From Acidimicrobiales bacterium (GTDB lineage: Bacteria; Actinomycetota; Acidimicrobiia; Acidimicrobiales; CATQHL01), in contig CBDBQD010000002.1 of NCBI GenBank assembly GCA_965209115.1, positions 1,223,890-1,287,889 of the forward strand: DNA of 64,000 nucleotides, read 5' to 3'. This document shows positions 23,253 to 55,918 of the stretch, in pieces. The notes beneath the pieces are model-generated. The model was given only the letters and a program-made list of their open reading frames with translations. It ran no database searches and was not told where the DNA came from. The position numbers were made by a program, and so were the translations under genes. How positions within the stretch are numbered: the stretch's first letter is position 1; every line of letters begins with the position of its first letter.

Positions 23253-23325
23253 GCCCCCGTAGCTCAGGGGACAGAGCAGGGGACTTCTAATCCCAAGGCC
23301 GCAGGTTCGAATCCTGCCGGGGGCG
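23253..23325 (+). tRNA. tRNA-Arg (anticodon TCT)
   Basis: Hand-folded cloverleaf: acceptor GCCCCCG/CGGGGGC, D arm GCTC-AGGGGACA-GAGC, anticodon loop CTTCTAA, T arm GCAGG-TTCGAAT-CCTGC, discriminator G. Total 73 nt. Confidence 0.9.
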
Positions 23326-23510
23326 CGGCGCCTCATCGTCGGGTATGGCACCGTGACAGCGGAGTGCACCACCGATCGGGCGACTGGCGGTTGACATCCG
23401 GACGGCGGTTCGGCGTAGTCGTCCAGACCGATGCCCTGCGCAGCGTCCTCGACCCGACCTGCCCACACCGCGGCGGGGGTTGAGCCACCTCGAGGCCGGT
23501 GGCGTCGGAG

Positions 23511-23712
23511 TTGGCGGCGTCCGAGGTGTCGGTAAGGCTGTCTCACCCCGTTCGTACGATCGGGTCCCTCGATCGAGGAGCCGAGACGAAGGCCGTGGCA
23601 GAACATTCGGTCATCGAGCAGACTGAGACGACGTGGAATCCAACCACGGGTTGTGCCCGCACGTCGCCGAGCCGCGACCACTGCTACGCGCTCGCTAAGC
23701 GGCTCAAGTCAG
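23511..23712 (+). pseudogene. decayed copy of the leader and first ~45 codons of the DUF5131 (Gp37/Gp68) gene
   Basis: Aligns by eye with 32981-33190. [38 protein letters not shown] corresponds to [40 protein letters not shown] in the intact gene. The middle Cys is lost, there are 3-nt and 6-nt deletions, and similarity stops at ~23712. Confidence 0.75.
23530..23564 (+). promoter_or_regulatory. conserved 35-nt leader element, copy 1
   Basis: cggtaaggctgtctcaccccgttcgtacgatcggg differs at 2 of 35 positions from 33001-33035. It contains the -10-like hexamer TACGAT. Confidence 0.35.
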
Positions 23713-23818
23713 AGATCCACCTCAGGTACGATCATCGCCGAGGTTCGCGGTGCGCAGTGCGGCGGCACTCACATCCGTCGCCGGTACGCGAGCGCACGTC
23801 GTCGGGAGGAGGCAGCAG

Positions 23819-24772
23819 ATGGCACGTTCAGACCTGCTGTTGAATCTCGTCGAGGCTGAGCGTTCGGGGGACCGGCAGCGGTTCTTGATGGTTGTCGAGT
23901 CGGTAATCGCAGAGGAGCGCCGGAAGCAGCATCATCTCGTTGCGGACCGGCTCGAAGAACTCATCTCGACGGCTGGATCCTCGGCGACCGCCCGGTACCA
24001 GAGCCCACCGGTAGCCCAGGACGGCCTGCTGCTGGAGGTCGTGCCGAGGCGGCGGCTGGCGGACCTGTCGCTGACGTCCGAAACGGCGACAACAGTGTCC
24101 GAGGTCATTGAGGAGCACCGCCGACGTGATGTGCTGAGGGCGCACGGGCTCGAGCCACGGCACCGGCTGATGCTTGTTGGGCCGCCCGGCAACGGCAAGA
24201 CGAGCCTGGCTGAGGCGATCGCCGCGGAACTGATGGTGCCGATGTTGGTGGCCTCGTATGAGGCGCTGATCAGCAGCTACCTCGGTGAGACTGCCAGCCG
24301 ACTCGCTGCGCTGTTCGAGTTCGTTCGATCGCGAGAATGCGTCTTGTTCTTTGATGAGTTCGACACGATTGCAAAGGAGAGGGCGGACGACCACGACACC
24401 GGTGAACTCAAGCGCGTGGTGTCGTCCCTCTTGTTGGGCGTTGATCGGCTACCGAGCCACGTAGTCGTGGTGACAGCGTCGAACCACCCGGAAGTCTTGG
24501 ACCGGGCCGCCGGGCGGCGGTTTCAAGTGCACGCAAACCTGCCGGCGCCGTCGCAGGCCGAGATCCAGCGGTTCGTCGAGCGACAGGAGAAGCGCGGTCA
24601 CGGCTTCGGCGTCAGTTCTGAGACGATCGCGAAGACCATGGTCGGTGCGAGTTACTCCGAGGTCGAAGACCTCCTGCTGGGTATTCGCCGCCGCTATGTG
24701 CTCGGCCTCCCAGATGCCGACCTGAAACGGACGGCACGAGAACGGCTGGATAGGTGGCGGAAGCAGACCTAG
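23819..24772 (+). CDS. ietA: AAA+ ATPase, IetA-like
   Basis: ATG 23819. Walker A GPPGNGKTS, Walker B VLFFDEFD, sensor region VVVTASNHPEVLD. Immediately followed by, and overlapping, an S8 protease gene, which is the IetAS architecture. Confidence 0.6.
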   Translation: MARSDLLLNLVEAERSGDRQRFLMVVESVIAEERRKQHHLVADRLEELISTAGSSATARYQSPPVAQDGLLLEVVPRRRLADLSLTSETATTVSEVIEEHRRRDVLRAHGLEPRHRLMLVGPPGNGKTSLAEAIAAELMVPMLVASYEALISSYLGETASRLAALFEFVRSRECVLFFDEFDTIAKERADDHDTGELKRVVSSLLLGVDRLPSHVVVVTASNHPEVLDRAAGRRFQVHANLPAPSQAEIQRFVERQEKRGHGFGVSSETIAKTMVGASYSEVEDLLLGIRRRYVLGLPDADLKRTARERLDRWRKQT

Positions 24773-27312
24773 TAGCACCGCCTTGGATCGTGCTCGAGGC
24801 GGTGCGGAAGGAGCGTATGCCGCCGCCGCAGCAGACAGGTCGGCCGCGTCTTCATACCCCTGACCATGGTGATCAGGTCACGCGGCGGGATCCTGGTTGG
24901 GCGTCGATCCGCAGAGCGTTCGATGCCGAGCGGATGCGGGTCGAGACTGCTGTCGGGTCGGAGGAGCCCGAACTCGTCGTTGTCATCGAGGTAGCGCGGT
25001 CGGTCGATGACTTCCTCGACACGGTTGAGAACATCGACGGCCTTGAGTTCCTGTTCGAGGACGCGGACGACCGCCCGCCGGACGACGACTTCCACCTGCT
25101 GCAGAAACGGAGGCATGCTGACGAGTACCGGCGGACGGCTTCCACGTCGCTCGCGTCCACCGTGTACTTCGTGTTCACCGACGCTGCCGCAGTCCGCGAC
25201 TTGTTGTCGATGTGGAAGCAGTTCAAGGAGAACCCATCCCTCCGACTTCCTCGGCCGTGGAGGCAGGTCTTCGCTCAGCAGGTCGAGGACGTGCGAGCCT
25301 GGGGGCCCAAGGATCGGTTGACAAAGTCGTTCGACGACGCCGTCCAGGCGGCGGAGTGGGAGGGGCTTGAGCGGATCTCCGTCGAGGTTGAACTCTGGTA
25401 TCGACGAGACCAGGAGGGTCGTGACGAGGCGGGTCGCCGCGTTCGCGACGAGGCGGCGGCGTGTGGGGGAACGGTCGTCAACGAGTGCGTGATTGAGGGC
25501 ATCGACTATCACGCACTGCTCGTTGAACTTCCCGTCGGAGAGGCGAAGTCCTTCTTCTCGGAGAACCCGGGGAATCTCGTCAGTGCGAAACAGGTGATGT
25601 ACCTGCATCGAAGCACGCAGTCAACGGTTCGTCGCCTTGAGGCCGTCGGCGAGTCACCCGCAGTCACCTCGGACGGCCCGAAACCGTCGGGATCACCGCG
25701 GATCGCGCTGCTCGATGGGTTGCCGATGGCGAACCACGACCTGCTCGCGGGCCGTCTCATCATTGACGACCCGGACGACCGCGAGCAGAGCTACCCAGCG
25801 CGGCACCGCCGGCACGGAACGGCGATGGCATCGGTCATCATCCATGGGGACCTGTCGGCGGCGCGGGATGTCTTGAGCCGTCCGCTGTACGTCCGCCCGA
25901 TCCTCGTAGCGCCCGACCGAGACGACGAGCCCGAGCGATACCCGAGAACCGAGTTGGTGTGCGATGTCGTGCACCGCGCGATTGTGCGAATCTGCGAGGG
26001 CGAGGGCGACGCTCCGCCGGTGGCTCCCGGTGTGAAGGTGGTCAACATCTCGATTGGTGATCCGGATCGCCATCTGGCTCGCCGTGTCAGTCCTCTGGCC
26101 CGATTACTGGACTATCTCGCTGACCGCTACGACCTGCTGTTTGTAGTCGCTGCGGGCAATCACCCTAAGCCGATCTCCTACGAGCCTCAGACCGGGGATC
26201 TCACGACCGACCTGCGGCGGGCGATCGTTGACGACTCACTTGATCGCCGGTTGCTTTCGCCGGCCGAATCGATCAACTCTCTGACGGTCGGCGCCCTCAA
26301 TTCGGATCGCAGCAACTCGGTTGTGAGGGCAGCAGACCATGTGGAGCCCGCGCCACCCGGCTCGCCGGCGCTGTATTCCGCGGTCGGCCGTGGCTTCGCT
26401 CGTTCGGTGAAGCCGGAGGTGTTCGCTCCCGGTGGCCGCCAGGTCTACGCGGAAGGCTTCGATAACGGTCAACCGGTACGAACGCTGCGGCCGATCGACA
26501 ACGTGGTGATAGGGCCGGGAGTGCTCCTTGCTCAGCCCAACTCCGCTGGCTCGACGGTCTCAGCTGAGTACTGGCGAGGCACGAGCCCGGCGACGGCCCA
26601 TGTCACGAGGTTCGCGTCCGATGTCCTCGACCGACTGGAACTCCTGCAGGCCGACCGCGGCGACGATGCTGTGCCCGACGAGTCGCTGACCGTGTTGACG
26701 AAGGCGCTTGTCGTCCACGCGGCAAGCTGGGGTGAGCCAATGACCTGGGAGACTGACGCGGGGGTCTCGGGCTCAGAGCGCCGCGGCGGGCTGAGCAGAC
26801 TGCTCGGTTACGGGCGCGTGTCGCCGTCCTGGCTGTTCACCGACGCGCCGCACCGGGCGACCCTGATTGCGACTGACGTGCTCGATGCCAACGAACAGGC
26901 ATTCTTTGACATCCCGCTCCCAGAGGGGCTCCGTTCGTCGACACACCGGCGCCGTCTCCGACTTACCTTGGCATGGTTCTCGCCGATCAACCCGAGGCAC
27001 CAGTCGTACCGCCGCGCTCGACTCGCACTTGAGATTCCGAAGACGAGTCGGACATTGATCGAAGTGGATCGCGCCGAGGTCCACCACGATACGGCGGTGC
27101 GTGGCACCGTCCAGCACGAGCTTCTCGAGGGGACCGATGCGCCGGTGTTCGACGACGGTGACAGATTCGGGGTCTTGGTGACGGCCCGGGCCGGAGCTGG
27201 AGCGCCTGGGGACAACATCCGGTTCGGATTGGTAGCCACCCTCGAGACCGCGATTGAGGCGGGCATCGCAGTGCGCGAGCAGATGCGAGCGAGGGTGCGG
27301 GTACGGCGATAG
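24754..27312 (+). CDS. ietS: S8-family (subtilisin-like) serine peptidase, IetS-like
   Basis: 852 aa. Catalytic-triad contexts are IALLDGLP (Asp), HGTAMASVIIHG (His) and GTSPATAHVTRF (Ser), with VVAAGNH as the oxyanion Asn. A large N-terminal domain of unknown function precedes them. The start codon (GTG 24754) is uncertain. Confidence 0.6.
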   Translation: MAEADLVAPPWIVLEAVRKERMPPPQQTGRPRLHTPDHGDQVTRRDPGWASIRRAFDAERMRVETAVGSEEPELVVVIEVARSVDDFLDTVENIDGLEFLFEDADDRPPDDDFHLLQKRRHADEYRRTASTSLASTVYFVFTDAAAVRDLLSMWKQFKENPSLRLPRPWRQVFAQQVEDVRAWGPKDRLTKSFDDAVQAAEWEGLERISVEVELWYRRDQEGRDEAGRRVRDEAAACGGTVVNECVIEGIDYHALLVELPVGEAKSFFSENPGNLVSAKQVMYLHRSTQSTVRRLEAVGESPAVTSDGPKPSGSPRIALLDGLPMANHDLLAGRLIIDDPDDREQSYPARHRRHGTAMASVIIHGDLSAARDVLSRPLYVRPILVAPDRDDEPERYPRTELVCDVVHRAIVRICEGEGDAPPVAPGVKVVNISIGDPDRHLARRVSPLARLLDYLADRYDLLFVVAAGNHPKPISYEPQTGDLTTDLRRAIVDDSLDRRLLSPAESINSLTVGALNSDRSNSVVRAADHVEPAPPGSPALYSAVGRGFARSVKPEVFAPGGRQVYAEGFDNGQPVRTLRPIDNVVIGPGVLLAQPNSAGSTVSAEYWRGTSPATAHVTRFASDVLDRLELLQADRGDDAVPDESLTVLTKALVVHAASWGEPMTWETDAGVSGSERRGGLSRLLGYGRVSPSWLFTDAPHRATLIATDVLDANEQAFFDIPLPEGLRSSTHRRRLRLTLAWFSPINPRHQSYRRARLALEIPKTSRTLIEVDRAEVHHDTAVRGTVQHELLEGTDAPVFDDGDRFGVLVTARAGAGAPGDNIRFGLVATLETAIEAGIAVREQMRARVRVRR

Positions 27313-27390: not shown

Positions 27391-30210
27391 ATGGCTGACC
27401 ATGCCGCTGGCGGGTTGACGCCTGAGCAGGAGGCTCGGCAGGAGATCGACGCGCAGTTGGTGGCGTGCGGGTGGGTGGTGCAGGACCACAGGCACGCGGC
27501 GATTGCTGCCGCTCGTGGGGTGGCGGTACGAGAGGTGCCTACCGATGCCGGGCGCGCTGACTACGTCCTGTTCGTGGACCGCCAAGCGGTGGGCGTGATC
27601 GAGGCCAAGCCGGTTGGGACGACGTTGACCGGGGTGGAGTCGCAGACGCTGCGGTACAGGGTTTCATTCCCCGACGAGCTGCCCGCTGTCCTGGTTAAGG
27701 AGTCGTTGCCTTTCGGTTACGAGTCCACCGGTGTCGAGACCCGGTTCACCTGCGGGTTGGATCCGGTGCCGACGTCGCGGCGGGTGTTCGCATTTCACCG
27801 GCCCGAGACGATGGCTCGATGGATTGACGACCACATCGAGGCAAAGGCCGGCACGCTGCGCGCCGGGTTGCAACTGTTGCCCGATCTCGATCCCCGAGGG
27901 CTCTGGACCGCTCAGGCGGAGGCCATTCGGGGCTTGGAGGAGTCCCTACTAGCCAACCGCCCGCGGGCATTGATCCAGATGGCCACCGGCGCCGGCAAGA
28001 CGTTCACCGCTGTCAACGCCATCTACCGGCTTGTGCGTCACGCCGGGGCGCAGCGTGTGCTGTTCCTGGTGGATCGGGCGACCCTGGGCCGCCAGGCCGT
28101 GCGGGAGTTCGAGGGTTTCGACACGCCTGATGACGGCCGGAAGTTCACCGAGTTGTACAACGTGCGCCGGCTCACCTCCTCGCACCTCGACATGGCCGCC
28201 GAGGGCGCCACGAAGGTGCACGTCTCGACGATCCAGCGGCTGCACTCGCTACTGCGGGGCGAGGAGATCGACGAGGCCGTCGACGAGCAGTCCGGCTTCG
28301 AGGTGGCGCCCGAGCAGCCCGTGGAGGTGGTCTACAACCCGGCGGTGCCCGTCGAGTCCTACGACGTGATCGTCGTCGACGAGTGCCACCGCTCCATCTA
28401 CGGGGTGTGGCGGCAGGTGCTGGAGTACTTCGACGCTTTCCTGGTCGGCCTGACCGCCACGCCGGGCATCCAGACCTTCGCCTTCTTCGAGCAGAACCTC
28501 GTCACCGAGTACGGCCACGCCGAGGCGGTGGCGGACCGGGTGAACGTGGACTTCGACGTGTTCCGCATCCGCACCGAGATCACCGAGGGCGGCAGCACCG
28601 TGCCTGCTGGGTTCGTCACGGGGTTCCGGGACCGTCTGACCCGCTCTGAGCGCCTCGAGCGGATCGACGCAGAGGTGGATTGCGACGCCGCAGAGTTGGA
28701 TCGCAGGGTGGTGGCGACCGATCAGATCCGCACCATCACAGCGACGCTGCGGAACTCGCTGCCGACGATGTTCCCCGACCGCGAGCGACATACCAATGGG
28801 CGGCTGCGCCACATCCCCAAGACACTGATCTTCGCGAAGGACGACAGCCACGCCGACGACATCGTGCAGATGGTGCGGGCGGAGTTCGGCCTCGGCAACG
28901 AGGGGGCGGTGAAGATCACCTACCGTTCGGGCGATTCGGGTCACCGCCCCGAGGACCTGCTGGCGCAGTTCCGGAACTCCTATAGCCCTCGTATCGCGGT
29001 GACCGTGGACCTCATCGCGACCGGCACCGACGTGAAGTCCATCGAGTGCGTGGTGTTCATGCGGCGGGTGCGCAGCCGCAACTACTTCGAGCAGATGAAG
29101 GGGCGTGGTGTGCGGGTCATCGACCCCAATGACCTGCGGGCCGTGACGCCCGACGCCACCGTGAAGGACCGCTTCGTGCTCGTCGACGCCGTCGGCGTAA
29201 CCGACGACGATCTGCACGACACCGTCCCGCTGGAGCGTCAACGCCACGAGAGCTTCGACAAGCTGCTGAGCCGCATCGGCCTTGGCTCCACCGCCGAGGC
29301 CACAGTGTCGTCGGTGGCGTCACGCCTGGCCCGCCTCGACCAGCGGATGACCGCCGGCGACCGCGCGGAGGTGGAAGCGGTCGCCGGGATGAGCCTCAGC
29401 GCTTTGGCCCATCAACTGGTGGAGGCGCTCGACCCCGACCGGCACATCGAAGCCGCCGCCGAGGCCGTCGGCACCGATGATCCCTCCGTCGAGCAGGTCG
29501 CCGCCGCCCGAGAGAGGATCGTCCGCCAGGCCCTGGAGCCGCTGGCCGGCAACCCGGAGTTGCGGCAGAAGCTGATCGAGGTCCGCCGAAGCTACGAGCA
29601 GATGATCGACTCGGCCTCACCCGATACGGTCATCTCCGAAGGGTTCTCCGTCGACGCCACCGACAGGGCCCGCCGCCAAGTCGAGTCGTTCCGAAAGTTC
29701 ATCGACGAGAACCGCGACCAGATCACCGCCCTCCAGGTGCTCTATGGCCAACCCCGTGGCGGGTTCACCTATACCGACGTCAAGGAACTGGCCAACGCCA
29801 TCGCCCGCCCACCCCACCGCTGGACCACCGAGAACCTCTGGGTTGCCTACGAGACTCTCGATGCCAGCAAAGTCCGAGGTTCGGGACACCGGGTCAACAC
29901 CGACCTCGTCAGCCTCGTCCGATTCGCGCTCGGCCGAACCGATGAGTTGGTCGCCTATCCCGAGTTGGTGGATGAGCGCTTCGAGGCGTGGATCCAGCAG
30001 CAGCGAAACGCCGGGCGCACCCTCACCGACGAGCAGATCGAGTACCTCAGCCTGATCCGCGATCACCTCGCGGGGAGTCTCGCGATCGCTCCGCCCGATC
30101 TCCAGAACCCACCCTTCAGCACCCACGGCGGCCTCGGCCGAGCAAGACAGCTCTTCGGGGCTGAACTCACTTCGCTGATGGACGAACTGATGGAAGTGCT
30201 AGTGGCGTGA
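27391..30210 (+). CDS. hsdR: type I restriction enzyme R subunit
   Basis: 939 aa. N-terminal nuclease-type region GRADYVLFVDRQAVGVIEAK, helicase motif I QMATGAGKT, motif II VVDECHRS, and an EcoEI-R-like C-terminal domain. Confidence 0.9.
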   Translation: MADHAAGGLTPEQEARQEIDAQLVACGWVVQDHRHAAIAAARGVAVREVPTDAGRADYVLFVDRQAVGVIEAKPVGTTLTGVESQTLRYRVSFPDELPAVLVKESLPFGYESTGVETRFTCGLDPVPTSRRVFAFHRPETMARWIDDHIEAKAGTLRAGLQLLPDLDPRGLWTAQAEAIRGLEESLLANRPRALIQMATGAGKTFTAVNAIYRLVRHAGAQRVLFLVDRATLGRQAVREFEGFDTPDDGRKFTELYNVRRLTSSHLDMAAEGATKVHVSTIQRLHSLLRGEEIDEAVDEQSGFEVAPEQPVEVVYNPAVPVESYDVIVVDECHRSIYGVWRQVLEYFDAFLVGLTATPGIQTFAFFEQNLVTEYGHAEAVADRVNVDFDVFRIRTEITEGGSTVPAGFVTGFRDRLTRSERLERIDAEVDCDAAELDRRVVATDQIRTITATLRNSLPTMFPDRERHTNGRLRHIPKTLIFAKDDSHADDIVQMVRAEFGLGNEGAVKITYRSGDSGHRPEDLLAQFRNSYSPRIAVTVDLIATGTDVKSIECVVFMRRVRSRNYFEQMKGRGVRVIDPNDLRAVTPDATVKDRFVLVDAVGVTDDDLHDTVPLERQRHESFDKLLSRIGLGSTAEATVSSVASRLARLDQRMTAGDRAEVEAVAGMSLSALAHQLVEALDPDRHIEAAAEAVGTDDPSVEQVAAARERIVRQALEPLAGNPELRQKLIEVRRSYEQMIDSASPDTVISEGFSVDATDRARRQVESFRKFIDENRDQITALQVLYGQPRGGFTYTDVKELANAIARPPHRWTTENLWVAYETLDASKVRGSGHRVNTDLVSLVRFALGRTDELVAYPELVDERFEAWIQQQRNAGRTLTDEQIEYLSLIRDHLAGSLAIAPPDLQNPPFSTHGGLGRARQLFGAELTSLMDELMEVLVA

Positions 30211-31487
30211 GCGACGCGCTGCCCTCCGGCTGGACAACGGCCACCCTTGACAACGTGTCTCGGGTTGTCCTCGGACAGTCTCCCCCAGGCAGTAGCTACA
30301 ACGATCGCGGCGAAGGTATCCCGTTCTTTCAGGGAAAGGCTGAGTTCGGAGATCGATACCCGGTCATTCGGAAGTGGACCACGGAACCGAAGAAGATTGC
30401 GCCAAGGGGATCAGTCCTCGTATCGGTACGGGCCCCGGTCGGGCCAACCAATGTTGCGCCGGTCGACTGCGCGATCGGTCGGGGTCTCGCGGCCGTAGGA
30501 GCGCTTGGAGAGATCTCTTCCGAATACTTGCTCTGGGCGATGCGCCAATCAGCTTCCAACCTCATCAGTGAGGCGACTGGAAGCACCTTCGACGCGATTA
30601 CCGGCGACCAGTTGAGAGCACACAGTCTACGGATCGCTCCACTCGATGAACAGAAGCGGATCGTTGCTGCCATCGAGGAGCACTTCTCCCGCCTCGACGC
30701 TGCCGAGGCCACGCTGACGGCTGCAAGACGAAAGCTCGCCTCTCTTCGACGCTCTGCGGTTGCGCGACTGTTTGATCAATCTGACTGGACATGGACGACT
30801 CTCGGGGAGGTCGCCGAGATCAAGGGGGGTGTGACCAAGGACTCGAAACGTCAGAGCGATCCGAGCTACGTCGAGGTCCCATACCTACGAGTCGCAAATG
30901 TCCAGAGGGGCTACCTGGATCTCTCGGAGGTGTCGCGGATTCGTGTACGTCCCGCCAAGGCCGAACAACTTGCCCTTCGCACCGGTGACGTTCTGTTCAA
31001 CGAAGGCGGTGACCGCGACAAACTCGGCCGGGGCTGGGTCTGGGAAGGACAGATCGACGGCTGCATACATCAGAATCATGTGTTTCGCGCTCGATTGAGC
31101 AGTGGAGAGTTCGATCCGTACTTCGTGTCGGTGCACGGGAACACGTGGGGCCAGCGATGGTTCGAGACTCACGGGAAGCACACCACGAATCTCGCGACGC
31201 TCAACCTGACGACATTGAAGTCGTTCCCGGTCCCGGCGCCACCGCTCGTCGAGCAGCGCAAGGTTGTGGCCGAGTTCCAGTCAATCCGCAGGAGCGAGGA
31301 CCGCCTGCGCGCTGAGATCAGTCGGGCGGAGAGCCGCTCGGCCGCTCTGCGGCGTTCGATCCTCGCTGACGCCTTCTCCGGGCGACTCGTGCCGCAGGAT
31401 CCCGATGACGAGCCTGCGTCGGTGCTCCTCGAGCGCATCGCCGAGTCTCGGCCGGCGAAGCCGCCTCACCGGAGGACGCGATCGTGA
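30207..31487 (+). CDS. hsdS: type I restriction enzyme S (specificity) subunit
   Basis: 426 aa. Two target-recognition halves are separated by conserved helices (PLDEQKRIVAAIEEHFSRLD and PPLVEQRKVVAEFQSI). GTGA overlap with hsdR. Confidence 0.9.
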   Translation: MSDALPSGWTTATLDNVSRVVLGQSPPGSSYNDRGEGIPFFQGKAEFGDRYPVIRKWTTEPKKIAPRGSVLVSVRAPVGPTNVAPVDCAIGRGLAAVGALGEISSEYLLWAMRQSASNLISEATGSTFDAITGDQLRAHSLRIAPLDEQKRIVAAIEEHFSRLDAAEATLTAARRKLASLRRSAVARLFDQSDWTWTTLGEVAEIKGGVTKDSKRQSDPSYVEVPYLRVANVQRGYLDLSEVSRIRVRPAKAEQLALRTGDVLFNEGGDRDKLGRGWVWEGQIDGCIHQNHVFRARLSSGEFDPYFVSVHGNTWGQRWFETHGKHTTNLATLNLTTLKSFPVPAPPLVEQRKVVAEFQSIRRSEDRLRAEISRAESRSAALRRSILADAFSGRLVPQDPDDEPASVLLERIAESRPAKPPHRRTRS

Positions 31488-32941
31488 CCTCCGATCCGAA
31501 GGCGTTGGTGCAGAGGCTGTGGGATTTCTGCGACGTCCTGCGTGATGACGGGTTGTCGTACGGGGAGTACCTGGAGCAGCTCACCTATCTGCTGTTCTTG
31601 AAGATGGCCGACGAGCAGTTCGAGCAGCTCGGCGGGCAGCGGGTGGTGCCGGCGGGGTTCGGCTGGGCGTCGCTGTTGCGGCGCTCGGGCGTCGAGTTGG
31701 AGCAGCACTACAGCACGGTGCTCGAAGAGCTCGGCGCGGGCGAGGACATGCTGGGGGTGGTATTCGGGAAGGCGCGCAATCGGGTGCAGGATCCGGCGAA
31801 GCTGGAGCGGCTCATCAAGGAGTTCGTGGACCGCCACGAGTGGCTGAGCCTGGATGCCGATCTGAAGGGCGACGCCTACGAGGGACTGATCGAAAAGACC
31901 GCGCAGGAGGGCGCCCGCGGGGCGGGCCAGTACTTCACGCCCCGGGCGTTGATCTCGGCCATCGTCGACGTGATGCGGCCGGGCCCCGATGATCGCGTCT
32001 GCGACCCGGCGTGTGGCACCGGCGGCTTCTTCCTCGGCGCCTACCAGTCGATCCTCCAGCGCTTCCCGCACCTGGAGCCGCACCAGACGGCGCACCTGCG
32101 GTCGGGGGCGTTCACGGGTTGGGAGATCGCGGATCTGCCGGCGCGGCTGTGCGCCATGAATCTGCTGCTGCACGGCATCGAGAGCCCCGAGTCAGACTCG
32201 CCGATCCGCGTCGACGACGCGCTGCGGGACTCTCCGAGCGCCCGCTTCGACATGGTGCTCACGAACCCGCCGTTCGGGCGGTCCTCCTCGGATAGCTACG
32301 AGCGGGAGGACTTCTGGGCCGCCACCCGCAACAAGCAACTCAACTTCGTGCAGCACATCGCCGGCCTGCTTCGCATCGACGGCACCGCGGCGGTGGTGGT
32401 GCCCGACAACGTGCTGTTCGAGGCCGGCGCCGGCGAGACGATCCGCCGCCGCCTGCTGGCTGACTGCGAGGTCCACACCCTGCTGCGCCTGCCGACGGGC
32501 ATCTTTTACGCCCAGGGCGTCAAGGCCAACGTCTTGTTCTTCCGCCGCCGCCCCGGCGCCGAGGCGGCCTGGACCCGCGAGCTGTGGGTCTACGACCTGC
32601 GCACCAACAAGCACTTCACCCGCAAGCAGAACCCCCTGCGCCGCGCCGACCTCGACGACTTCGTGACCTGCTACCGCCCCGACGAGTTCCACCGCCGCGA
32701 GGAGTCCGAACGCTTCAAGCGCTTCACCTACGAGGAACTGCTGGCCCGCGACAAGGTCAGCCTCGACATCTTCTGGCTCCGCGACGACAGCCTCACCGAC
32801 ACCGACGACCTCCCACCCCCCGCCGTCCTCGCCGCCGAGATCGCCGAAGACCTCCAAGCCGCCCTAGAAGAAATCCAAACCCTCGCCGACTCCCTGGCAG
32901 CCACCGAAATCGCGTCGGGCGGGGAGCAGACCGGAGACTGA
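31484..32941 (+). CDS. hsdM: type I restriction enzyme M subunit (N6-adenine methyltransferase)
   Basis: 485 aa. N-terminal LWDFCDVLRDDGLSYGEYLEQLTYLLFLKM, motif I DPACGTGGF, catalytic NPPFG. GTGA overlap with hsdS. Confidence 0.9.
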   Translation: MTSDPKALVQRLWDFCDVLRDDGLSYGEYLEQLTYLLFLKMADEQFEQLGGQRVVPAGFGWASLLRRSGVELEQHYSTVLEELGAGEDMLGVVFGKARNRVQDPAKLERLIKEFVDRHEWLSLDADLKGDAYEGLIEKTAQEGARGAGQYFTPRALISAIVDVMRPGPDDRVCDPACGTGGFFLGAYQSILQRFPHLEPHQTAHLRSGAFTGWEIADLPARLCAMNLLLHGIESPESDSPIRVDDALRDSPSARFDMVLTNPPFGRSSSDSYEREDFWAATRNKQLNFVQHIAGLLRIDGTAAVVVPDNVLFEAGAGETIRRRLLADCEVHTLLRLPTGIFYAQGVKANVLFFRRRPGAEAAWTRELWVYDLRTNKHFTRKQNPLRRADLDDFVTCYRPDEFHRREESERFKRFTYEELLARDKVSLDIFWLRDDSLTDTDDLPPPAVLAAEIAEDLQAALEEIQTLADSLAATEIASGGEQTGD

Positions 32942-32980
32942 CAGGACCCCGATTCACGGCGCTGCAACGCGGAGGCCGAC

Positions 32981-33190
32981 TTGGCGGCGCTGGCGGGCAG
33001 CGGTAAGGCTGTCGCACCCCGTTCCTACGATCGGGATCGTGAATAGTCGAGCCGGGAAGAAGGGCATGGCCGACCGTTCGGGCATCGAGTGGACCGAGAC
33101 GACGTGGAACCCGACCACGGGTTGTGACCGCACGTCTCCGGGGTGCGACAACTGCTACGCGCTCGCGCTCGCCAAGCGGCTCAAGGCCAT
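32981..33190 (+). repeat. intact counterpart of the diverged direct repeat at 23511-23712
   Basis: Covers the leader plus the 5' coding region of the DUF5131 gene. By eye it is roughly 70-95% identical to the left copy, depending on the sub-segment. Confidence 0.75.
33001..33035 (+). promoter_or_regulatory. conserved 35-nt leader element, copy 2
   Basis: cggtaaggctgtcgcaccccgttcctacgatcggg. Matches copy 1 at 33 of 35 positions and lies 30-60 nt upstream of the DUF5131 start candidates. Confidence 0.35.
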
Positions 33191-33818
33191 GGGTCAGCCC
33201 AAATATCGCAATGACGGAGACCCCCGCACCAGCGGCCCCGGCTTCGCGCTGACCCTCCATCCCGACACCCTGGACGTCCCCTACACGTGGCGGTCGCCGC
33301 GGCTGGTCTTCGTCAACTCGATGAGCGATCTCTTCCACCCCGACGTGCCGCTGGACTTCATCCGCCGCGTGTTCGAGGTGATGGCTGACACGCCGCAGCA
33401 CACCTACCAGATCCTCACCAAGCGCTCCCGACGGCTGCGCAACCTCTCCGAGGGCCTCGACTGGCCCGACAACGTCTGGATGGGCGTCAGCGTCGAGACC
33501 GAGCGCTACGCCTTCCGCATCGACCACCTCCGCCAAGTCGGCGCCAAAGTCCGCTTCCTCAGCGCCGAACCCCTGCTCGGAGCGCTCCCCGACCTCGATC
33601 TCACCGGCATCGACTGGCTGATCGCCGGCGGCGAGAGCGGCCCCGGTGCCCGGCGCATGGAGGAGGAGTGGGTCCGCGACCTCCGCGACCAGTGCGGATC
33701 CGCCGGCGTCGCCTTCTTCTTCAAGCAATGGGGAGGCCGAACCCCCAAAGCCAACGGCCGCGACCTCGACGGCAAACACCACGACGAGATGCCACAGCGC
33801 TACTTCGCCTTCACATGA
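33039..33818 (+). CDS. DUF5131 / phage Gp37-Gp68 family protein (three-Cys motif)
   Basis: Family hallmarks: IEWTETTWNPTTGCDRTSPGCDNCYA (Cx6CxxC), FVNSMSDLFH, ILTKR, LSAEPLL, IAGGESGPGARRM, FFFKQWGG. ATG 33066 (MADRSG) is an alternative start. Confidence 0.85.
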   Translation: MNSRAGKKGMADRSGIEWTETTWNPTTGCDRTSPGCDNCYALALAKRLKAMGQPKYRNDGDPRTSGPGFALTLHPDTLDVPYTWRSPRLVFVNSMSDLFHPDVPLDFIRRVFEVMADTPQHTYQILTKRSRRLRNLSEGLDWPDNVWMGVSVETERYAFRIDHLRQVGAKVRFLSAEPLLGALPDLDLTGIDWLIAGGESGPGARRMEEEWVRDLRDQCGSAGVAFFFKQWGGRTPKANGRDLDGKHHDEMPQRYFAFT

Positions 33819-34894
33819 CTTCACGCCTGGAGGGGTGGGACTGGTGGTCTGAGGCGAAGCTCCAAGTCTTGGCGGACTACTTGCAGGCGTTCACTCGAGT
33901 CGTCCGAGGCGGATCGGAGGAAGCCATCTACCTCGATCTGTTCGCCGGCAGCTTCGAAAACGACCGGCGCCACGGCACGGGCACCTTCGCGGGCTCGACT
34001 CAGATTGCCCTCCGCACCGAACCGAGGTTCACAAAGCTGGTGTTCTTCGAGTTGCCGGATAGAGCCGCCCGCCTCCGCGCCGACATCCAACAGGCTCGAC
34101 CCTCGGACCATCGCTGGCGCGTCAAGGCGGGCGACTGTAACGAAACGTTGCCATCGGCGCTCTCGATGCTCAGACAGGTCCGGTGGGCGCCAACCTTCGC
34201 GTTCCTGGATCCCCGCGGTCTGCAGGTCGAGTGGAGCACTGTCCGAACCCTCGCCGACTGGCGGCGCGACAAGAAAACGAAGGTGGAGCAATGGATTCTG
34301 ATGCCAGAGCCGGCGATCGCCCGTGTACTCGGCCTACGCGGCGTGCAAGGAACACGCAGCGCAGAGCGTCTGGATCGGCTCTTCGGTTCCCGTGATTGGC
34401 TTCCGATCCACCAGGGCCGGCGGAGCGGCGCACTCACGCCAGAGGACATGCGTGCTGAGTTCGTCAACCTCTACCGGTGGCGGCTCGAGAAGGTGCTCGG
34501 CTACCGCACCACCCACGCGCTCCAGATTGTGGCCACGGGTGGCCAACCCGTCTACACGCTCATCTTCGCCACAGACTCCCCACCTGGCGACGCCATCATG
34601 GGGTATCTCTACAACTCCGCCGCGACCGCGACGATCCCCGCGATGCAAGCGCGGGCCAAGGTCGCTCGACAGCATCGTCGCGACGACGACGCCGGAGTCC
34701 TCCGATTGCCGGGCCTAGACGAATACGAGTTGGCGACTGCCGTGCCTGAGCAGCGTACGTACGAGCATGAGCTGCCTTGGGAGCCCGAGCCGATAGTCGA
34801 CGACACATTCGAACTCGACAGGGACGAACCGGACATTGACCCAGACGACATCAAGTGGAACAGCGAGTTCGACGACCACAATGAGGACACGTAG
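33815..34894 (+). CDS. three-Cys-motif partner protein TcmP-like
   Basis: ATG 33815 overlaps the DUF5131 stop (ATGA). Reads WDWWSEAKLQVLADYLQAFTRV..IYLDLFAGSF....FAFLDPRGL, followed by a very acidic C-terminal tail. Confidence 0.7.
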   Translation: MTSRLEGWDWWSEAKLQVLADYLQAFTRVVRGGSEEAIYLDLFAGSFENDRRHGTGTFAGSTQIALRTEPRFTKLVFFELPDRAARLRADIQQARPSDHRWRVKAGDCNETLPSALSMLRQVRWAPTFAFLDPRGLQVEWSTVRTLADWRRDKKTKVEQWILMPEPAIARVLGLRGVQGTRSAERLDRLFGSRDWLPIHQGRRSGALTPEDMRAEFVNLYRWRLEKVLGYRTTHALQIVATGGQPVYTLIFATDSPPGDAIMGYLYNSAATATIPAMQARAKVARQHRRDDDAGVLRLPGLDEYELATAVPEQRTYEHELPWEPEPIVDDTFELDRDEPDIDPDDIKWNSEFDDHNEDT

Positions 34895-35256
34895 GCCGAA
34901 TTCAATGGATCGCTCCATTCGTACGAGTCCGCGCGCCTCCCTTGAACTGGAAGCGCTGAGCGAGGATCCTGACACCGAATCCGGCAGTGGCGAAGTCGCT
35001 ACAGCGCGCTTAGGTGGTTTACATCTGTTCGACTTTCCCGCAGCGCACACGGTGGACGCCGCACCGAGTCGGAGACAACCCCAACCGGGTCAGTTCGGAG
35101 TCGGTGATCGGGACGGGGTGCGGCACTTGGCCCTCATCGTCTCGTCTGCTACGACCGATCGACACACGCTCGATCGAGGTGGCCACCGCCATACCGAGCC
35201 AACATGCGACCGGTGGTCCCCTCGCCACCATCTCCCGGAGTCAAGCGAGGGTGGAG

Positions 35257-35285
35257 TTCAAGGGCAGTTCAGTCACGGCTATTCT
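35257..35285 (+). promoter_or_regulatory. sigma-70-like promoter, probably giving a leaderless or near-leaderless transcript
   Basis: TTCAAG (35257-35262), a 17-nt spacer, then TATTCT (35280-35285). The -10 element ends 8 nt before ATG 35294, and no Shine-Dalgarno sequence is visible. Confidence 0.35.
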
Positions 35286-35293
35286 CATTTGGC

Positions 35294-36682
35294 ATGAAAC
35301 GGGATGACATACCGATCGGCGAGCTCTTGCTTGACGCTGAGAATCCGCGGCATGGTGAGGTTGAGGACCAAGATGCGGCCTTGGAGCGACTCGTCGCGAT
35401 CCGTCCGCAGCATCTCAGGAGCCTCACTGAAGACATCGCAAAGAACGGACTTCACCCGGGACTCGGCTTTCTGGTCTTCCCGACTGAGGACGGTCGCTTT
35501 GTGGTTCTGGACGGTAATCGGCGACTGGCCGCGATCAAGCTCCTCACGCAACCAGATTCTGCGCCAGCGTCCTGGCGGCCAATCACCACCGAGATCGAGG
35601 TTGACCTCAACTCGTTCGAGAGACTGCCGTGCACCATCTTAGATTCGCGTGAGGACGGGAGGCTGTGGCTCGAACGGATGCACACAGGCCAGATGAACGG
35701 AGTCGGGGTTGTGCAATGGCCGCCAATGGCGCAGCATCGCTTTAGTCCCCGCAACGATCAGCGAGGTCGAGGAGCTGCCGCGTTGGCCTGGTTGAGCAGC
35801 CGAACTGAGCCGGGCGAGGCCGATCTTCATGAAGCGATCGAGACCGTGGAAGGCGAGATCACGACTTTTGGCCGGCTTGTGCAGACCAGTGCTGTGCGGC
35901 CGATCTTGGGGTACGACTTCAAGGGCAATGAACTGGTGCCAACCGAGGGCACCAGCGAACTCGTCCTCTACGAACGCTTGATTTCCGCTGTCAAAGACCT
36001 CGCAGGCGGAAAGGATGTCAACGACCTGCGGACGATTCCGCAGCGCGTCGCATACGCCCACGCCTTGGCCGGTTCAAGCGAGAGCGACGACGAGAGCGAC
36101 CCTCGGGCACAGGAGGAACCTGCCGAGCAGGCCGCAGACGAGTCGGAGGGGGAACAATCCACGGGTGGCGAGGATCAGGAACCGGCGAGCGAGGGTGAGT
36201 CGCAGGAAGCGACCAAGCCCAAGAGGCGGAAGCGGTCGAGTCAGCCGAAGGCGAGCGTTCTCGACGCTCCCCTGCCAGATGTTTTCAGACCTCGAATCGT
36301 GCGAATCTCAGAAGAACTCTGCGCTCTCAACGTTCACGAGCATCCGAACGCTGTGGCCGTACTCCTGCGGCTGCTGATCGAAATGACTACGGAGCAGTGT
36401 CGACGCGCAGAGAATCTCTCAAAGCAGGGCGACCTGAGGGAGCACATCGAACGCGTGGTCCAGCGAGTTCAGACGCCCCAAGACCAGAAGGACAACGTGT
36501 TCCACGGCGTCACGGTAAGTCTGAGCACTCCCAAAGACCGTGACCACACGAAAAACTTCAATCAACATGTCCACAATGTGGACTACCACCCTGTGCCGAC
36601 GGACTTGATCAACACCGCGGAGAACTACCGGCCGTACTTCGAGCGGATCGGTCAACGCCTAGCTGGCAAGGCGGCCAGTTGA
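35294..36682 (+). CDS. ParB N-terminal-domain (ParB/Srx-fold) protein with an acidic linker and an unknown C-terminal domain
   Basis: ATG 35294. LLLDAENPRHGE and VVLDGNRRLAAIKLL are ParB/sulfiredoxin-fold motifs. A low-complexity acidic stretch (SSESDDESDPRAQEEPAEQAADESEGEQSTGGEDQEPASEGESQEATKPKRRKRS) is followed by ~125 aa with no family I recognise. Confidence 0.6.
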   Translation: MKRDDIPIGELLLDAENPRHGEVEDQDAALERLVAIRPQHLRSLTEDIAKNGLHPGLGFLVFPTEDGRFVVLDGNRRLAAIKLLTQPDSAPASWRPITTEIEVDLNSFERLPCTILDSREDGRLWLERMHTGQMNGVGVVQWPPMAQHRFSPRNDQRGRGAAALAWLSSRTEPGEADLHEAIETVEGEITTFGRLVQTSAVRPILGYDFKGNELVPTEGTSELVLYERLISAVKDLAGGKDVNDLRTIPQRVAYAHALAGSSESDDESDPRAQEEPAEQAADESEGEQSTGGEDQEPASEGESQEATKPKRRKRSSQPKASVLDAPLPDVFRPRIVRISEELCALNVHEHPNAVAVLLRLLIEMTTEQCRRAENLSKQGDLREHIERVVQRVQTPQDQKDNVFHGVTVSLSTPKDRDHTKNFNQHVHNVDYHPVPTDLINTAENYRPYFERIGQRLAGKAAS

Positions 36683-36685
36683 GCG

Positions 36686-37549
36686 ATGCCATATGTGAGT
36701 CCGCTGCGATATCCGGGCGGAAAATCGCTGTTGGCGAAATTCGTCGCAGATGTGCTAGCCCGCCTGCCAGACGTCCAGCACTACATGGAGCCGTTCGCAG
36801 GGGGCGCGGCTGTGGCGCTTCGTCTGCTCTACGAAGGCAGCGTGTCATCAGTGACCATAGGCGACTCCGATCCGGCCGTCGCCGCGTTCTGGCGTTGTGC
36901 GGTCCACCGAAGCGACGAGCTGATCGAGAGGGTGACTGAGTGCCAGGTGGTGATCGGCACATGGCACACCCAGTATCAGACTCTGACGAACCCAGACCGC
37001 ACAGACGACCTTGACCTCGGGTTCGCGACCTTCTTCCTCAACCGCACCAACCGATCAGGAATCTTGCGCGCACGACCCATTGGAGGCTTGCGACAGGATG
37101 GCGAGTGGCGCTTGGACTGCCGCTTCAACAAGGACGACCTTGTCCAGCGGCTGCGCAGAGTCGCCCAGTACGCAGCTCAGATCGACATCTTCGAAGGCGA
37201 CGCGATCGACCTACTCGCGCGCGTCGACAAGGCTCGCAGACAGAGCACCTTCGTATATGTGGACCCGCCCTACCTGACGCGTTCCTCGGACCTGTATCTG
37301 GACGAGATGTCATTCGACGGGCACAAGCAGATCGCACAGCTGCTGCGCGACGAATTCCCGTACTGGATGGCGAGTTACGACATCGATGATCGCGTGCGGT
37401 CGGAGCTGTACTCCGAGAGCCCCATATTGACCTTCGCGCTGCGCCACTGCGCATCAAGCAACCATATTGGAACCGAGCAGATCGCGTTCTCTGATGCATG
37501 CGTGCTGGACGACGAAGTCCGCTACCCCAGAGCCGCTGCCTGGGTCTGA
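36686..37549 (+). CDS. Dam-like (D12 class) N6-adenine DNA methyltransferase
   Basis: 287 aa with PLRYPGGK, EPFAGGAAV (SAM motif), FFLNRTNRSG and VYVDPPY (catalytic motif). Starts 3 nt after the ParB-like gene. Confidence 0.85.
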   Translation: MPYVSPLRYPGGKSLLAKFVADVLARLPDVQHYMEPFAGGAAVALRLLYEGSVSSVTIGDSDPAVAAFWRCAVHRSDELIERVTECQVVIGTWHTQYQTLTNPDRTDDLDLGFATFFLNRTNRSGILRARPIGGLRQDGEWRLDCRFNKDDLVQRLRRVAQYAAQIDIFEGDAIDLLARVDKARRQSTFVYVDPPYLTRSSDLYLDEMSFDGHKQIAQLLRDEFPYWMASYDIDDRVRSELYSESPILTFALRHCASSNHIGTEQIAFSDACVLDDEVRYPRAAAWV

Positions 37550-54575: not shown

Positions 54576-55017
54576 GTGCGCCTGTCGTGGAACGAGGTCC
54601 GTGGCCGAGCGACTGCGTTCGCCGAACAGTGGCGGGATGCGGCCGATGAGGTGCGCGAGGCGCAGAGCTTCTACAACGACTTCTTCCGGGTCTTCGACGT
54701 CGAGCGCCGCAGCGTGGCGCGCTACGAGGAGCACGTTCGAAAACTCGATGACAAGGACGGGTTCATCGACTTGTTCTGGCCGGGGGTGCTCCTCGTCGAG
54801 CAGAAGAGCGCCGGGCGCAGCCTCGCCGGAGCTTACGACCAGGCCGGCGAGTACTTCGACGCGCTGAAGATGCGCGATCGGCCTCGGTACATCCTGGTGA
54901 GCGATTTCCAGAACTTCGAGTTGCACGACCTCGACGAGCGCAGGACGGTCGCGTTCCCGCTGAGAGACCTGCCCGACAACGTCGAGGCGTTCGGGTTCAT
55001 CATGGGCGTTCAGCCCG
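54576..55017 (+). pseudogene. N-terminal (nuclease-domain) fragment of an MmeI-family type IIL restriction-modification enzyme
   Basis: MRLSWNEVRGRATAFAEQWRDAADEVREAQSFYNDFFRVF...GFIDLFWPGVLLVEQKS...PRYILVSDFQNFELHDL...FGFIMG parallels the MmeI N-terminus, including its D...ExK nuclease motif. The methyltransferase and TRD parts are absent. Confidence 0.75.
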
Positions 55018-55348
55018 CGACATTCGCGGGCAGCGGCTCGAATTGCTGGAGTTCGGCTAGCAGACGCTCGAACCGGGGCCTCTCTGACTCGATGAAGTGG
55101 AACACGAACTGCCGATGGCCAAACCGGGAGAACGCCCCGTGTTGCAGGAGCGCTCGTAGCGCGATCACCGGGGACCCTGGCTCGCCGCCCTCGTAGATAC
55201 CCGGTCCGGCAAATCCGTCGATGAAGACGAGCCGTCTCTCTCGTGAGGCCATGATCGGAAACCAGGCACCCAAGTAGTGGCGGAGCAACTCGTGTTTCGC
55301 CTGCGTGTGCGGCTCAATAGGCCAGACCGCTCCACGAGGCGCACTCAC
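55010..55348 (-). pseudogene. N-terminal fragment of a second TcmP-like gene
   Basis: 112 aa: WPIEPHTQAKHELLRHYLGAWFPIMASRERRLVFIDGFAGPGIY..GSPVIAL. It parallels residues ~1-110 of the TcmP at 33815 and ends abruptly against the MmeI fragment. Confidence 0.65.
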
Positions 55349-55683: not shown

Positions 55684-55847
55684 GGTGATATTGCTTCGTA
55701 GTCAAGGGCTGCAGTGCCGCTCCAAGTGAACCTCCCCGGGTTTGGTGGAGTTCCCAGGGGCTCCTGAAGAGCCCACAGTCGCGCCAGAACAGCGCGCCAA
55801 GCCATGACTGGCCAACACGGCGAGCCGCAATTCGCCAACAGGCGCTG

Positions 55848-55918
55848 AGCGGGCGAGGGGAATCGAACCCCCGTCATCAGCTTGGAAGGCTGAGGTTCTG
55901 CCGTTGAACTACGCCCGC
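55848..55918 (-). tRNA. tRNA-Gly (anticodon TCC)
   Basis: The reverse complement folds by hand: acceptor GCGGGCG/CGCCCGC, D arm GTTC-AACGGCA-GAAC, anticodon stem-loop TCAGC-CTTCCAA-GCTGA, T arm GGGGG-TTCGATT-CCCCT, discriminator T. Total 71 nt. Confidence 0.9.

Follow-up and report, generated by a model that had tools for sequence, protein, structure and literature searches.

A DUF5131–TcmP gene pair in an acidimicrobial defence island as a candidate two-subunit radical-SAM module

Introduction

The proteins of the NCBIfam family TcmP are named for their pairing with DUF5131, and PADLOC-DB v2 lists the two together as the candidate PDC-M41, with PDC-M30 as its sister. PDC systems were found by guilt-by-embedding and are termed "putative, nonexperimentally validated" (PMC10855318). 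Two validation studies of PDC systems tested members other than PDC-M41 and PDC-M30, and our literature search found no paper assigning a function to DUF5131–TcmP, in agreement with the preliminary description of the DNA analysed here. This DNA is a 64,000-nucleotide stretch of the genome of an Acidimicrobiales bacterium (contig CBDBQD010000002.1; the whole stretch is hereafter termed the window), in which a DUF5131 gene and a TcmP gene lie side by side within a defence island.

SFLD and RadicalSAM.org, both curated, place DUF5131 as a subgroup within the radical S-adenosylmethionine (SAM) superfamily. The one paper found to name DUF5131 lists it as uncharacterised; in RadicalSAM.org it forms Megacluster-5-2, beside spore photoproduct lyase (SPL; 5-3), both in megacluster 5 (PMC9477430). 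SPL and gp53 of phage M6, the latter matching SPL, were at the time of PMC8989533 the sole radical-SAM enzymes known to have DNA as their substrate. An accessory gene bound to restriction-modification (R-M) has been described in prrC, which is always linked to an R-M locus (PMC3458546). Here, we tentatively propose that DUF5131 and TcmP constitute a two-subunit radical-SAM enzyme in which TcmP binds and presents the target, most likely DNA, a reading that we hold to be possible and somewhat short of probable.

Results

An intact DUF5131–TcmP pair follows a type I R-M operon

The pair comprises two genes:

33066..33818, plus strand: DUF5131 (Gp37/Gp68) gene, 250 amino acids, putative radical-SAM catalytic subunit; alternative GTG start at 33039
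33815..34894, plus strand: TcmP gene, 359 amino acids; ATG start inside the ATGA overlap

The start of the DUF5131 gene is likely ATG 33066 rather than GTG 33039, because the homologues begin with MADRSGIEW. The two genes overlap by the four nucleotides ATGA at 33815–33818, as expected from the translational coupling noted in the preliminary description, and its placement of the pair directly after a type I R-M operon held as well, hsdM ending at 32941. The DUF5131 protein matched PF07505 with an E value of 4.8e-101 and 337.8 bits (cutoff, 28.9), its residues 5–243 covering profile positions 2–243 of 243, and also matched PADLOC PDC-M41B (E 1.9e-112) and PDC-M30B. TcmP scored 170.3 bits against TIGR04474 (cutoff, 53), with residues 11–268 corresponding to profile positions 2–261 of 263, matched PDC-M41A with an E value of 9.9e-28, and had no match in Pfam. 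Both family matches lie above their cutoffs and the genes are adjacent, and the pairing is annotated, as stated in the preliminary description. The nearest homologues of both proteins were mostly found in metagenome-assembled genomes of Acidimicrobiia. Judging from the sequence, the window locus is an intact and probably functional copy of the two-gene module and represents one more member of an already catalogued candidate defence family, so that the idea of a defence candidate is not new.

DUF5131 is modelled as a barrel that may be of the radical-SAM type

The motifs quoted earlier for the first gene were all present in the DUF5131 protein (GCDRTSPGCDNCYA, FVNSMSDLFH, ILTKR, GGESG, and FFFKQWGG). 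The three cysteines of the Cx6CxxC cluster (C20, C27, and C30) were invariant across 33 homologues, as were SMSDLFH, LTKR, SAEPLL, GGESG, and F-F-x-Q-W-G. More than 8000 close DUF5131 homologues were scored in one search. An AlphaFold2 model was built on a shallow alignment of the 33 close homologues, all at least 74% identical, and took the form of a (beta/alpha), TIM-like barrel with a predicted local distance difference test (pLDDT) score of 76. The best natural matches of this model in the PDB by TM-score were SPL (TMq 0.46–0.47) and human lipoyl synthase (0.40). PF04055 was not among the Pfam matches of the protein, and a phmmer search of DUF5131 against the PDB returned no match, including none to SPL sequences. 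The modelled barrel agrees with the curated radical-SAM placement and is not independent proof of it.

TcmP is predicted to share the fold of class I methyltransferases

The AlphaFold2 model of TcmP, which likewise rests on a shallow alignment (pLDDT 82.9; predicted TM-score 0.83), placed a seven-stranded Rossmann-like core, interrupted by a helical insert, between an N-terminal helix and a long C-terminal helix, with a disordered tail at the end. All of the significant Foldseek matches in the PDB were class I SAM-dependent methyltransferases (probability 1.0, best E 4.5e-5, TMq 0.30–0.36), including KsgA/RsmA, LCMT-1, SgvM, and COMT-like enzymes. In the viral fold library BFVD, TcmP matched generic methyltransferases alone, none of them at an E value of 1e-3 or below. 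Based on this model, TcmP is a protein of the class I methyltransferase fold. The two models thus fit the radical-SAM-type barrel and the Rossmann methyltransferase fold that the preliminary description had named for comparison.

An exhaustive profile search yielded a TcmP superfamily of 3531 clusters at 50% identity. D41, G45, E79, G106-D107-x-N109, and D132 were invariant or nearly so in 54 diverse members; D132 of motif IV was invariant, and E79 (after the strand at 74–79) and D107 (after the strand at 101–105) were conserved in at least 90% of the members. In the model, D41, G45, E79, D107, and D132 are placed just after beta-strands 1 to 4, the positions at which methyltransferases bind SAM and the target atom. 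An invariant glycine (G258) and a conserved short motif, Y-H-PPWEPP, which follows a disordered linker, were also found.

The preliminary description had read IYLDLFAGSF and FAFLDPRGL in the second gene as methyltransferase motifs I and IV. Both stretches are present, but neither is canonical. The window TcmP lacks GxGxG and reads LDLFAGSFEN, of which only D41 and G45 are kept family-wide (some relatives keep FAGEGSG or FAGRGRY at motif I), and its motif IV reads DPRG in place of (D/N)PP(Y/F) and lacks the aromatic residue. No Pfam methyltransferase family was matched by 10 diverse TcmP members at E values up to 5, the sole real Pfam match among them being a GMT-like winged helix-turn-helix (wHTH) domain in two PDC-M30A-type relatives. 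Neither single-sequence nor profile searches with TcmP or DUF5131 found a match in the PDB. A possible kinship to RlmJ was examined by hhalign against rlmJ of Escherichia coli MG1655; the match was colinear but had a probability of 14%, and the kinship was not confirmed and is kept as a lead only. As GxGxG, the aromatic residue of motif IV, and sequence matches in Pfam and the PDB are all absent, we do not call TcmP a methyltransferase by definition and regard it as a protein with a predicted methyltransferase fold that has probably retained a site for an adenosyl ligand.

The isoelectric point of the first 300 residues of TcmP is 10.0 and that of the last 50 residues is 4.05; the latter contain 20 aspartates or glutamates and 3 lysines or arginines, as anticipated from the strongly acidic tail reported earlier. 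In relatives of the PDC-M30A type, a winged-helix domain takes the place of the acidic tail. Conservation was highest in the Rossmann core, and the C-terminal helix and tail were the most variable parts. One relative, P0323 (552 amino acids), consists of two near-identical tandem copies of approximately 270 residues, which probably stem from misassembly or from a duplication in tandem that is recent.

TcmP is always found with DUF5131

The analysis covered 80 genome loci with TcmP relatives at 36–75% identity, each species being represented by a single genome; the genes in these loci were called by our own heuristic based on G+C content at third codon positions (GC3). DUF5131 adjoined TcmP in all 77 loci with a testable flank; in 76 of these it lay upstream in the same orientation, and in one it was convergent. 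Among the IMG/VR contigs recovered with DUF5131, 38 of 79 possessed an adjacent gene of the TcmP superfamily, and three arrangements of the pair were seen (TcmP first, DUF5131 first, and convergent). The IMG/VR loci with DUF5131 and no TcmP showed no dominant substitute partner, their neighbour clusters having at most 4 members. Pairing is therefore obligate on the TcmP side and not on the DUF5131 side. No third gene was conserved beside the pair in the genome loci, the top neighbour family occurring in 16 of 79. In a metagenomic fragment of 260 amino acids (P0374), the C-terminus of DUF5131 (GGESG...FFFKQWGG) was fused in-frame to the N-terminus of TcmP through a linker of approximately 10 residues. 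This single fragment could be a genuine fusion or the product of a frameshift or sequencing error.

TcmP is exchanged beside conserved hsdM and DUF5131 genes

The commonest neighbours in the 79 loci were tyrosine integrases (16), HsdM (15), HsdR (9), Mutator transposases (8), HsdS (6), and TrwC relaxases (6). The window order hsdR(S)M–DUF5131–TcmP, with all genes on the same strand, recurred in approximately 12 other species. Over these hsdR(S)M-linked loci, which are not independent of one another, the pairwise identities of HsdM and DUF5131 were correlated with r = 0.93 and those of HsdM and TcmP with just 0.54. The window and locus L065 share 79% identity in HsdM, 81% in DUF5131, and 40% in TcmP. 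At the nucleotide level, identity to L065, L040, and L038 was 75–83% through hsdM and DUF5131 and fell to approximately 50% from the DUF5131/TcmP boundary onward. The median identity to the window proteins across all loci was 71% for DUF5131 and 40% for TcmP. The pattern, read from the sequences of non-independent loci, describes a conserved putative catalytic gene with an exchangeable partner, similar to the relation of hsdS to hsdM. We found no description of the co-divergence of HsdM and DUF5131 with a swapped TcmP in the literature searched.

A gene for a fusion of NUDIX and D-glutamate cyclase was located a few genes 3' of TcmP in five loci (L023, L032, L034, L035, and L064), all of which have hsdM upstream. 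This recurrence suggests a larger conserved composite island.

The module occurs in prophages and on plasmids

In the Gordonia phages PantheRoc and BaxterFox, TcmP lies directly 3' of the immunity repressor gene, convergent with DUF5131 and beside the integrase gene. The lysogeny module of actinophages is the usual place of exclusion genes expressed by prophages. Phage ThankyouJordi carries a PDC-M30A-type partner in the slot held by TcmP in PantheRoc and BaxterFox. In two other phages, DUF5131 was found with a different neighbour and no TcmP: in Gordonia phage Bakery (L086, 1421–3975), the last base of a C5 DNA methyltransferase gene is the first base of DUF5131, and a DUF1643 gene overlaps the start of DUF5131 by 4 nucleotides in Mycobacterium phage Bipper (L088, 2516–3924). 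In Burkholderia phage phiE125 (L087, 1952–3993), from which the Gp37 name derives, gp37 (DUF5131) is preceded by the overlapping gp38 of 350 amino acids, with an integrase gene nearby. gp38 was considered as a TcmP and rejected, as it showed no TcmP similarity; it also had no Pfam match. It may belong to another, unrelated partner family of DUF5131.

DUF5131 was detected on 421 of 72,556 plasmids, 161 of which are conjugative. In the mercury-resistance region of Pseudomonas aeruginosa plasmid pNK546b (L170, 5000–8086), genes for a site-specific integrase, DUF5131, and TcmP form a tight co-directional array, the TcmP being a 439-amino-acid version with a GMT-like wHTH domain. Altogether, we infer that DUF5131–TcmP is mobile cargo in conflicts between phages and hosts or between mobile elements. 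For Sinorhizobium meliloti, the genes tabulated as raised in a nolR+ strain include tcmP (SMa2243), listed next to hna (SMa2245) (PMC12445080).

The window contains two islands with remnants of the module

The first island spans from tRNA-Arg at 23.3 kb to 37.6 kb and includes, in addition to the intact pair, the following features:

23253–23326: tRNA-Arg, left edge of the island
23511..23729, plus strand: DUF5131 remnant with its upstream region, first 47 codons, decayed
23750–27312, plus strand: IetAS system by PADLOC (IetA AAA ATPase, E 1e-132; IetS subtilase, E 2e-254)
27391..32941, plus strand: type I R-M operon by Pfam matches (hsdR 27391–30210, hsdS 30207–31487, hsdM 31484–32941)
32978..33065, plus strand: upstream region of the pair, with a 35-nucleotide core, CGGTAAGGCTGTCGCACCCCGTTCCTACGATCGGG, common with the 23.5 kb remnant (33/35 identical)
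35204–37549, plus strand: PD-Lambda-5 A and B by PADLOC, directly 3' of TcmP

PADLOC and Pfam scans thus gave the defence order IetAS, type I R-M, DUF5131–TcmP, and PD-Lambda-5, in which protein A of the last has 492 amino acids (E 2e-77) and protein B is an adenine methyltransferase of the D12 class (E 4e-96). The G+C content is 0.61–0.67 over the island and approximately 0.70 on both flanks. The preliminary description of the pair as a candidate defence module stands as far as this setting is concerned, but the candidate had already been catalogued as PDC-M41.

The coding part of this remnant, at 23595–23729 on the plus strand, corresponds to residues 1–47 of a DUF5131 (64% identity, E 8e-13 by tblastn); together with its upstream region, the remnant (23511–23729) lies approximately 185 nucleotides after tRNA-Arg. 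It shares these 47 codons and approximately 85 upstream nucleotides with the intact copy at 84% nucleotide identity. The remnant has lost C27, carries a 6-nucleotide deletion, and stops where ietA starts; the complete IetAS follows directly. The shared upstream region may be the promoter or leader of the pair itself. A promoter and terminator scan around the pair found no promoter-like site and no match to the sigma-70 consensus, and terminator-like sites were at chance level. The 35-nucleotide core was also considered as a conserved regulatory element and rejected: it is absent 5' of DUF5131 in all other loci, with up to 8 substitutions permitted, and its presence in both copies here is therefore put down to their common ancestry. 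Most simply, an older module beside tRNA-Arg would have been overwritten by an incoming ietAS–hsdRSM–DUF5131–TcmP block with a pair of its own.

The second island is a decayed islet at 54–55.85 kb adjoining tRNA-Gly:

54576–55196, plus strand: fragment of an MmeI N-terminal domain (PF20464, E 9e-35), converging on the TcmP remnant
55010–55348, minus strand: TcmP remnant, N-terminal fragment of 112 amino acids
55483–55683, minus strand: small open reading frame between the TcmP remnant and tRNA-Gly
55847–55918: tRNA-Gly, beside the islet

The MmeI fragment, the TcmP remnant, and the small open reading frame together have the look of a decayed island. The TcmP remnant scored 85 bits against TIGR04474 (cutoff, 53; profile positions 1–100 of 263), is of the PDC-M30A subtype (73 bits), and keeps motif I intact (FAGPG). 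Because 37.7–53.8 kb is core genome, encoding a transketolase- or E1-like enzyme, a class I aminoacyl-tRNA synthetase, and permeases, this remnant belongs to a separate islet. Of the three sites at which the preliminary description had placed the pair or its fragments, the fragments at 23.5 kb and 55.0–55.3 kb are real and beside tRNA genes, but they sit in two separate islands and not in one; their position at island edges bears out the turnover or shuffling that it had suggested.

Truncated or split copies of DUF5131 or TcmP were seen in L001 (9769–10041, a 90-amino-acid DUF5131 stub near IS21), L009, L044, L072, and L084. Together with the window remnants, these copies show rapid turnover and frequent inactivation of the module.

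Discussion

In the enzyme that we propose, DUF5131 would be the conserved catalytic subunit, a small barrel of the radical-SAM type in which Cx6CxxC holds a predicted [4Fe-4S] cluster that would cleave SAM to generate a 5'-deoxyadenosyl radical. TcmP would be the variable recognition subunit, a basic core of the methyltransferase fold with putative cofactor-holding residues for the adenosyl moiety. Given that this fold binds a flipped-out base in other enzymes, TcmP may pick out the target and offer it to the radical chemistry; the likeliest target would be a base or sugar in DNA. The obligate pairing, the single fusion fragment, and the lack of a conserved third gene speak for a joint enzyme, and the fast divergence and exchange of TcmP resemble those of a specificity subunit. 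The module would be used in defence or counter-defence, as an appendix to the type I R-M operon in the window and approximately 12 species, and from the lysogeny module in the Gordonia prophages. Its product may protect DNA as a mark or harm it as a lesion on foreign DNA. A DNA target is favoured because the known DNA-acting radical-SAM enzymes are SPL and the SPL-like M6 gp53, DUF5131 is grouped with SPL, its partners have folds of the base-flipping type or carry wHTH domains, and its genomic company is R-M. The pair may modify DNA and confer phage resistance, as suggested in the preliminary description. The neighbour and PADLOC scans showed the related loci to be rich in genes for defence and mobility: PADLOC families matched at E values of 1e-10 or below numbered 151 for 120 near proteins (encoded within 2.5 kb of the pair) and 28 for 120 far proteins (6.5 kb or more).

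Several observations weigh against this proposal. On the DUF5131 side, pLDDT is just 52–60 around the loop of the cysteine cluster, the fold resembles that of SPL only weakly, with E values of 4e-3 to 1e-2 and TMq no higher than 0.47, and the Cx6CxxC spacing departs from the CX3CX2C of radical-SAM enzymes. On the TcmP side, SAM binding and base flipping are uncertain because FAGSFEN and DPRG replace the canonical motifs, and no sequence match in Pfam or the PDB links TcmP to any nucleic-acid enzyme. The genomic context is also less uniform than the proposal would lead one to expect: most phage DUF5131 genes have no TcmP (181 phage records with DUF5131, only 5 with TcmP), and only approximately 16% of TcmP loci are linked to R-M. 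The near/far PADLOC comparison is crude: it counts families, not proteins, so that one protein may match many profiles, and it draws on phylogenetically non-independent loci with genes from the GC3 heuristic. Finally, no paper naming PDC-M41, or testing PDC-M41 or PDC-M30, was found, and PDC-M30 was named in just two.

The partner fold could also be read as that of an RlmJ- or KsgA-like RNA-binding subunit, in which case tRNA or rRNA, of the host or of a phage, would be the substrate of the pair. Many radical-SAM enzymes modify RNA, the top Foldseek matches of TcmP include the rRNA methyltransferases KsgA/RsmA, and the weak hhalign match to E. coli RlmJ is colinear over GSP...E...D...DPPY. Nevertheless, we regard an RNA target as improbable: the RlmJ match has a probability of only 14%, the module is accessory, mobile, and patchy and not housekeeping, and it is linked to R-M and has relatives with wHTH domains or DNA-methyltransferase partners. 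A role resembling that of viperins or abortive infection, in which DUF5131 would make an antiviral or toxic product from a nucleotide or metabolite and TcmP would be a fast-evolving sensor or regulator, appears improbable to the same degree. The prokaryotic viperins are a precedent for radical-SAM defence, and the defence-island location, the lack of a nuclease or toxin domain, and a partner whose fast divergence and swapping are frequent traits of sensors would all suit it. Against this, similarity to viperin was not detected, the closest fold belongs to SPL, which acts on DNA, the neighbours include no nucleotide kinase or other small-molecule partner gene, and TcmP has a basic core and relatives carrying wHTH domains.

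The likeness to SPL, which is the best natural structural match of DUF5131 and shares its megacluster, could also mean that DUF5131 reverses a lesion as SPL does and TcmP finds it, making the pair a DNA repair system of mobile elements; the occurrence of phage DUF5131 among genes for replication and DNA metabolism is in line with this. We consider repair very improbable, as it leaves the hypervariable partner, allele swapping, R-M linkage, and position in the prophage lysogeny module unexplained. Below it we rank a selfish function in the maintenance or transfer of integrative elements, either an addiction module or an accessory to integration and excision. Tyrosine integrases are the commonest neighbour (16/79 loci), pNK546b has the integrase–DUF5131–TcmP array, the window remnants lie beside tRNA genes, and one distant relative bears the name "radical SAM mobile pair protein A"; however, an integrase within 10 kb is lacking in most loci, the pair frequently sits within chromosomal arrays of R-M operons, and defence cargo clusters beside integrases too. 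The lowest rank is held by the idea that TcmP is itself the protein substrate, on which DUF5131 would place a radical or modification, for example at the C-terminal motif, in the manner of glycyl-radical activating enzymes. At 250 amino acids DUF5131 has the size of such an activase, and TcmP offers the conserved Y-H-PPWEPP after its disordered linker and the invariant G258. This is highly improbable in our view, since TcmP has no glycyl-radical motif, many DUF5131 genes have no TcmP, and conservation within TcmP is lowest in its C-terminal region.

DUF5131 is a large radical-SAM subgroup with no assigned function that is spread over phage records, plasmids, and more than 8000 homologues. If a radical-based modification or targeting of DNA by the DUF5131–TcmP enzyme is true, it would be a new chemistry for bacterial immunity or phage counter-defence and would account for an appendage seen repeatedly behind type I R-M operons. 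A broader version, which we consider unlikely as it stands, would see in the pair a new class of nucleic-acid immunity, in which a radical-SAM subunit with an exchangeable specificity subunit of the methyltransferase fold marks or damages DNA and serves both as a second arm of type I R-M cassettes and as a prophage exclusion system. The co-divergence of HsdM and DUF5131 with a swapped TcmP gives a testable prediction about specificity, and the BaxterFox and PantheRoc prophages, with the pair beside the repressor gene, are a tractable natural test system.

Comparison with known systems

SPL and M6 gp53 are radical-SAM barrel enzymes that act on bases in DNA, M6 gp53 being an isomerase on hypermodified thymidine. 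DUF5131 resembles SPL as its best natural structural match and as a member of the same RadicalSAM.org megacluster, a weak likeness with no match at the sequence level. It differs from both enzymes in being shorter and in having N-terminal cysteines spaced as Cx6CxxC, whereas SPL and M6 gp53 possess CX3CX2C and have no partner of the methyltransferase fold. With the amino-methyltransferases (RsmD, RlmJ, and the N6-adenine DNA enzymes), TcmP shares the predicted seven-stranded fold, the acidic residues after strands 1–3, and D-P after strand 4. In contrast to them, the window TcmP lacks GxGxG, motif IV is DP(R/K/N)G and lacks the aromatic residue, no methyltransferase hidden Markov model detects the protein, TM-scores are only 0.3–0.5, and there are an extra N-terminal helix and a C-terminal extension.

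The PrrC anticodon nuclease at the type I R-M locus EcoprrI is, like the pair, an accessory conflict gene physically tied to a type I operon. The pair follows hsdM, with which it co-diverges, in approximately 12 species in addition to the window. The proteins are unrelated to PrrC, and linkage to R-M is seen in only approximately 16% of TcmP loci. The closest relation is to PDC-M41 (TIGR04474 and PF07505): the window genes match both profiles and are adjacent, making the pair a member from which nothing defining differs. Within this family, the window pair has the order DUF5131 then TcmP with an ATGA overlap, and its clade is marked by a degenerate glycine loop and an acidic tail.

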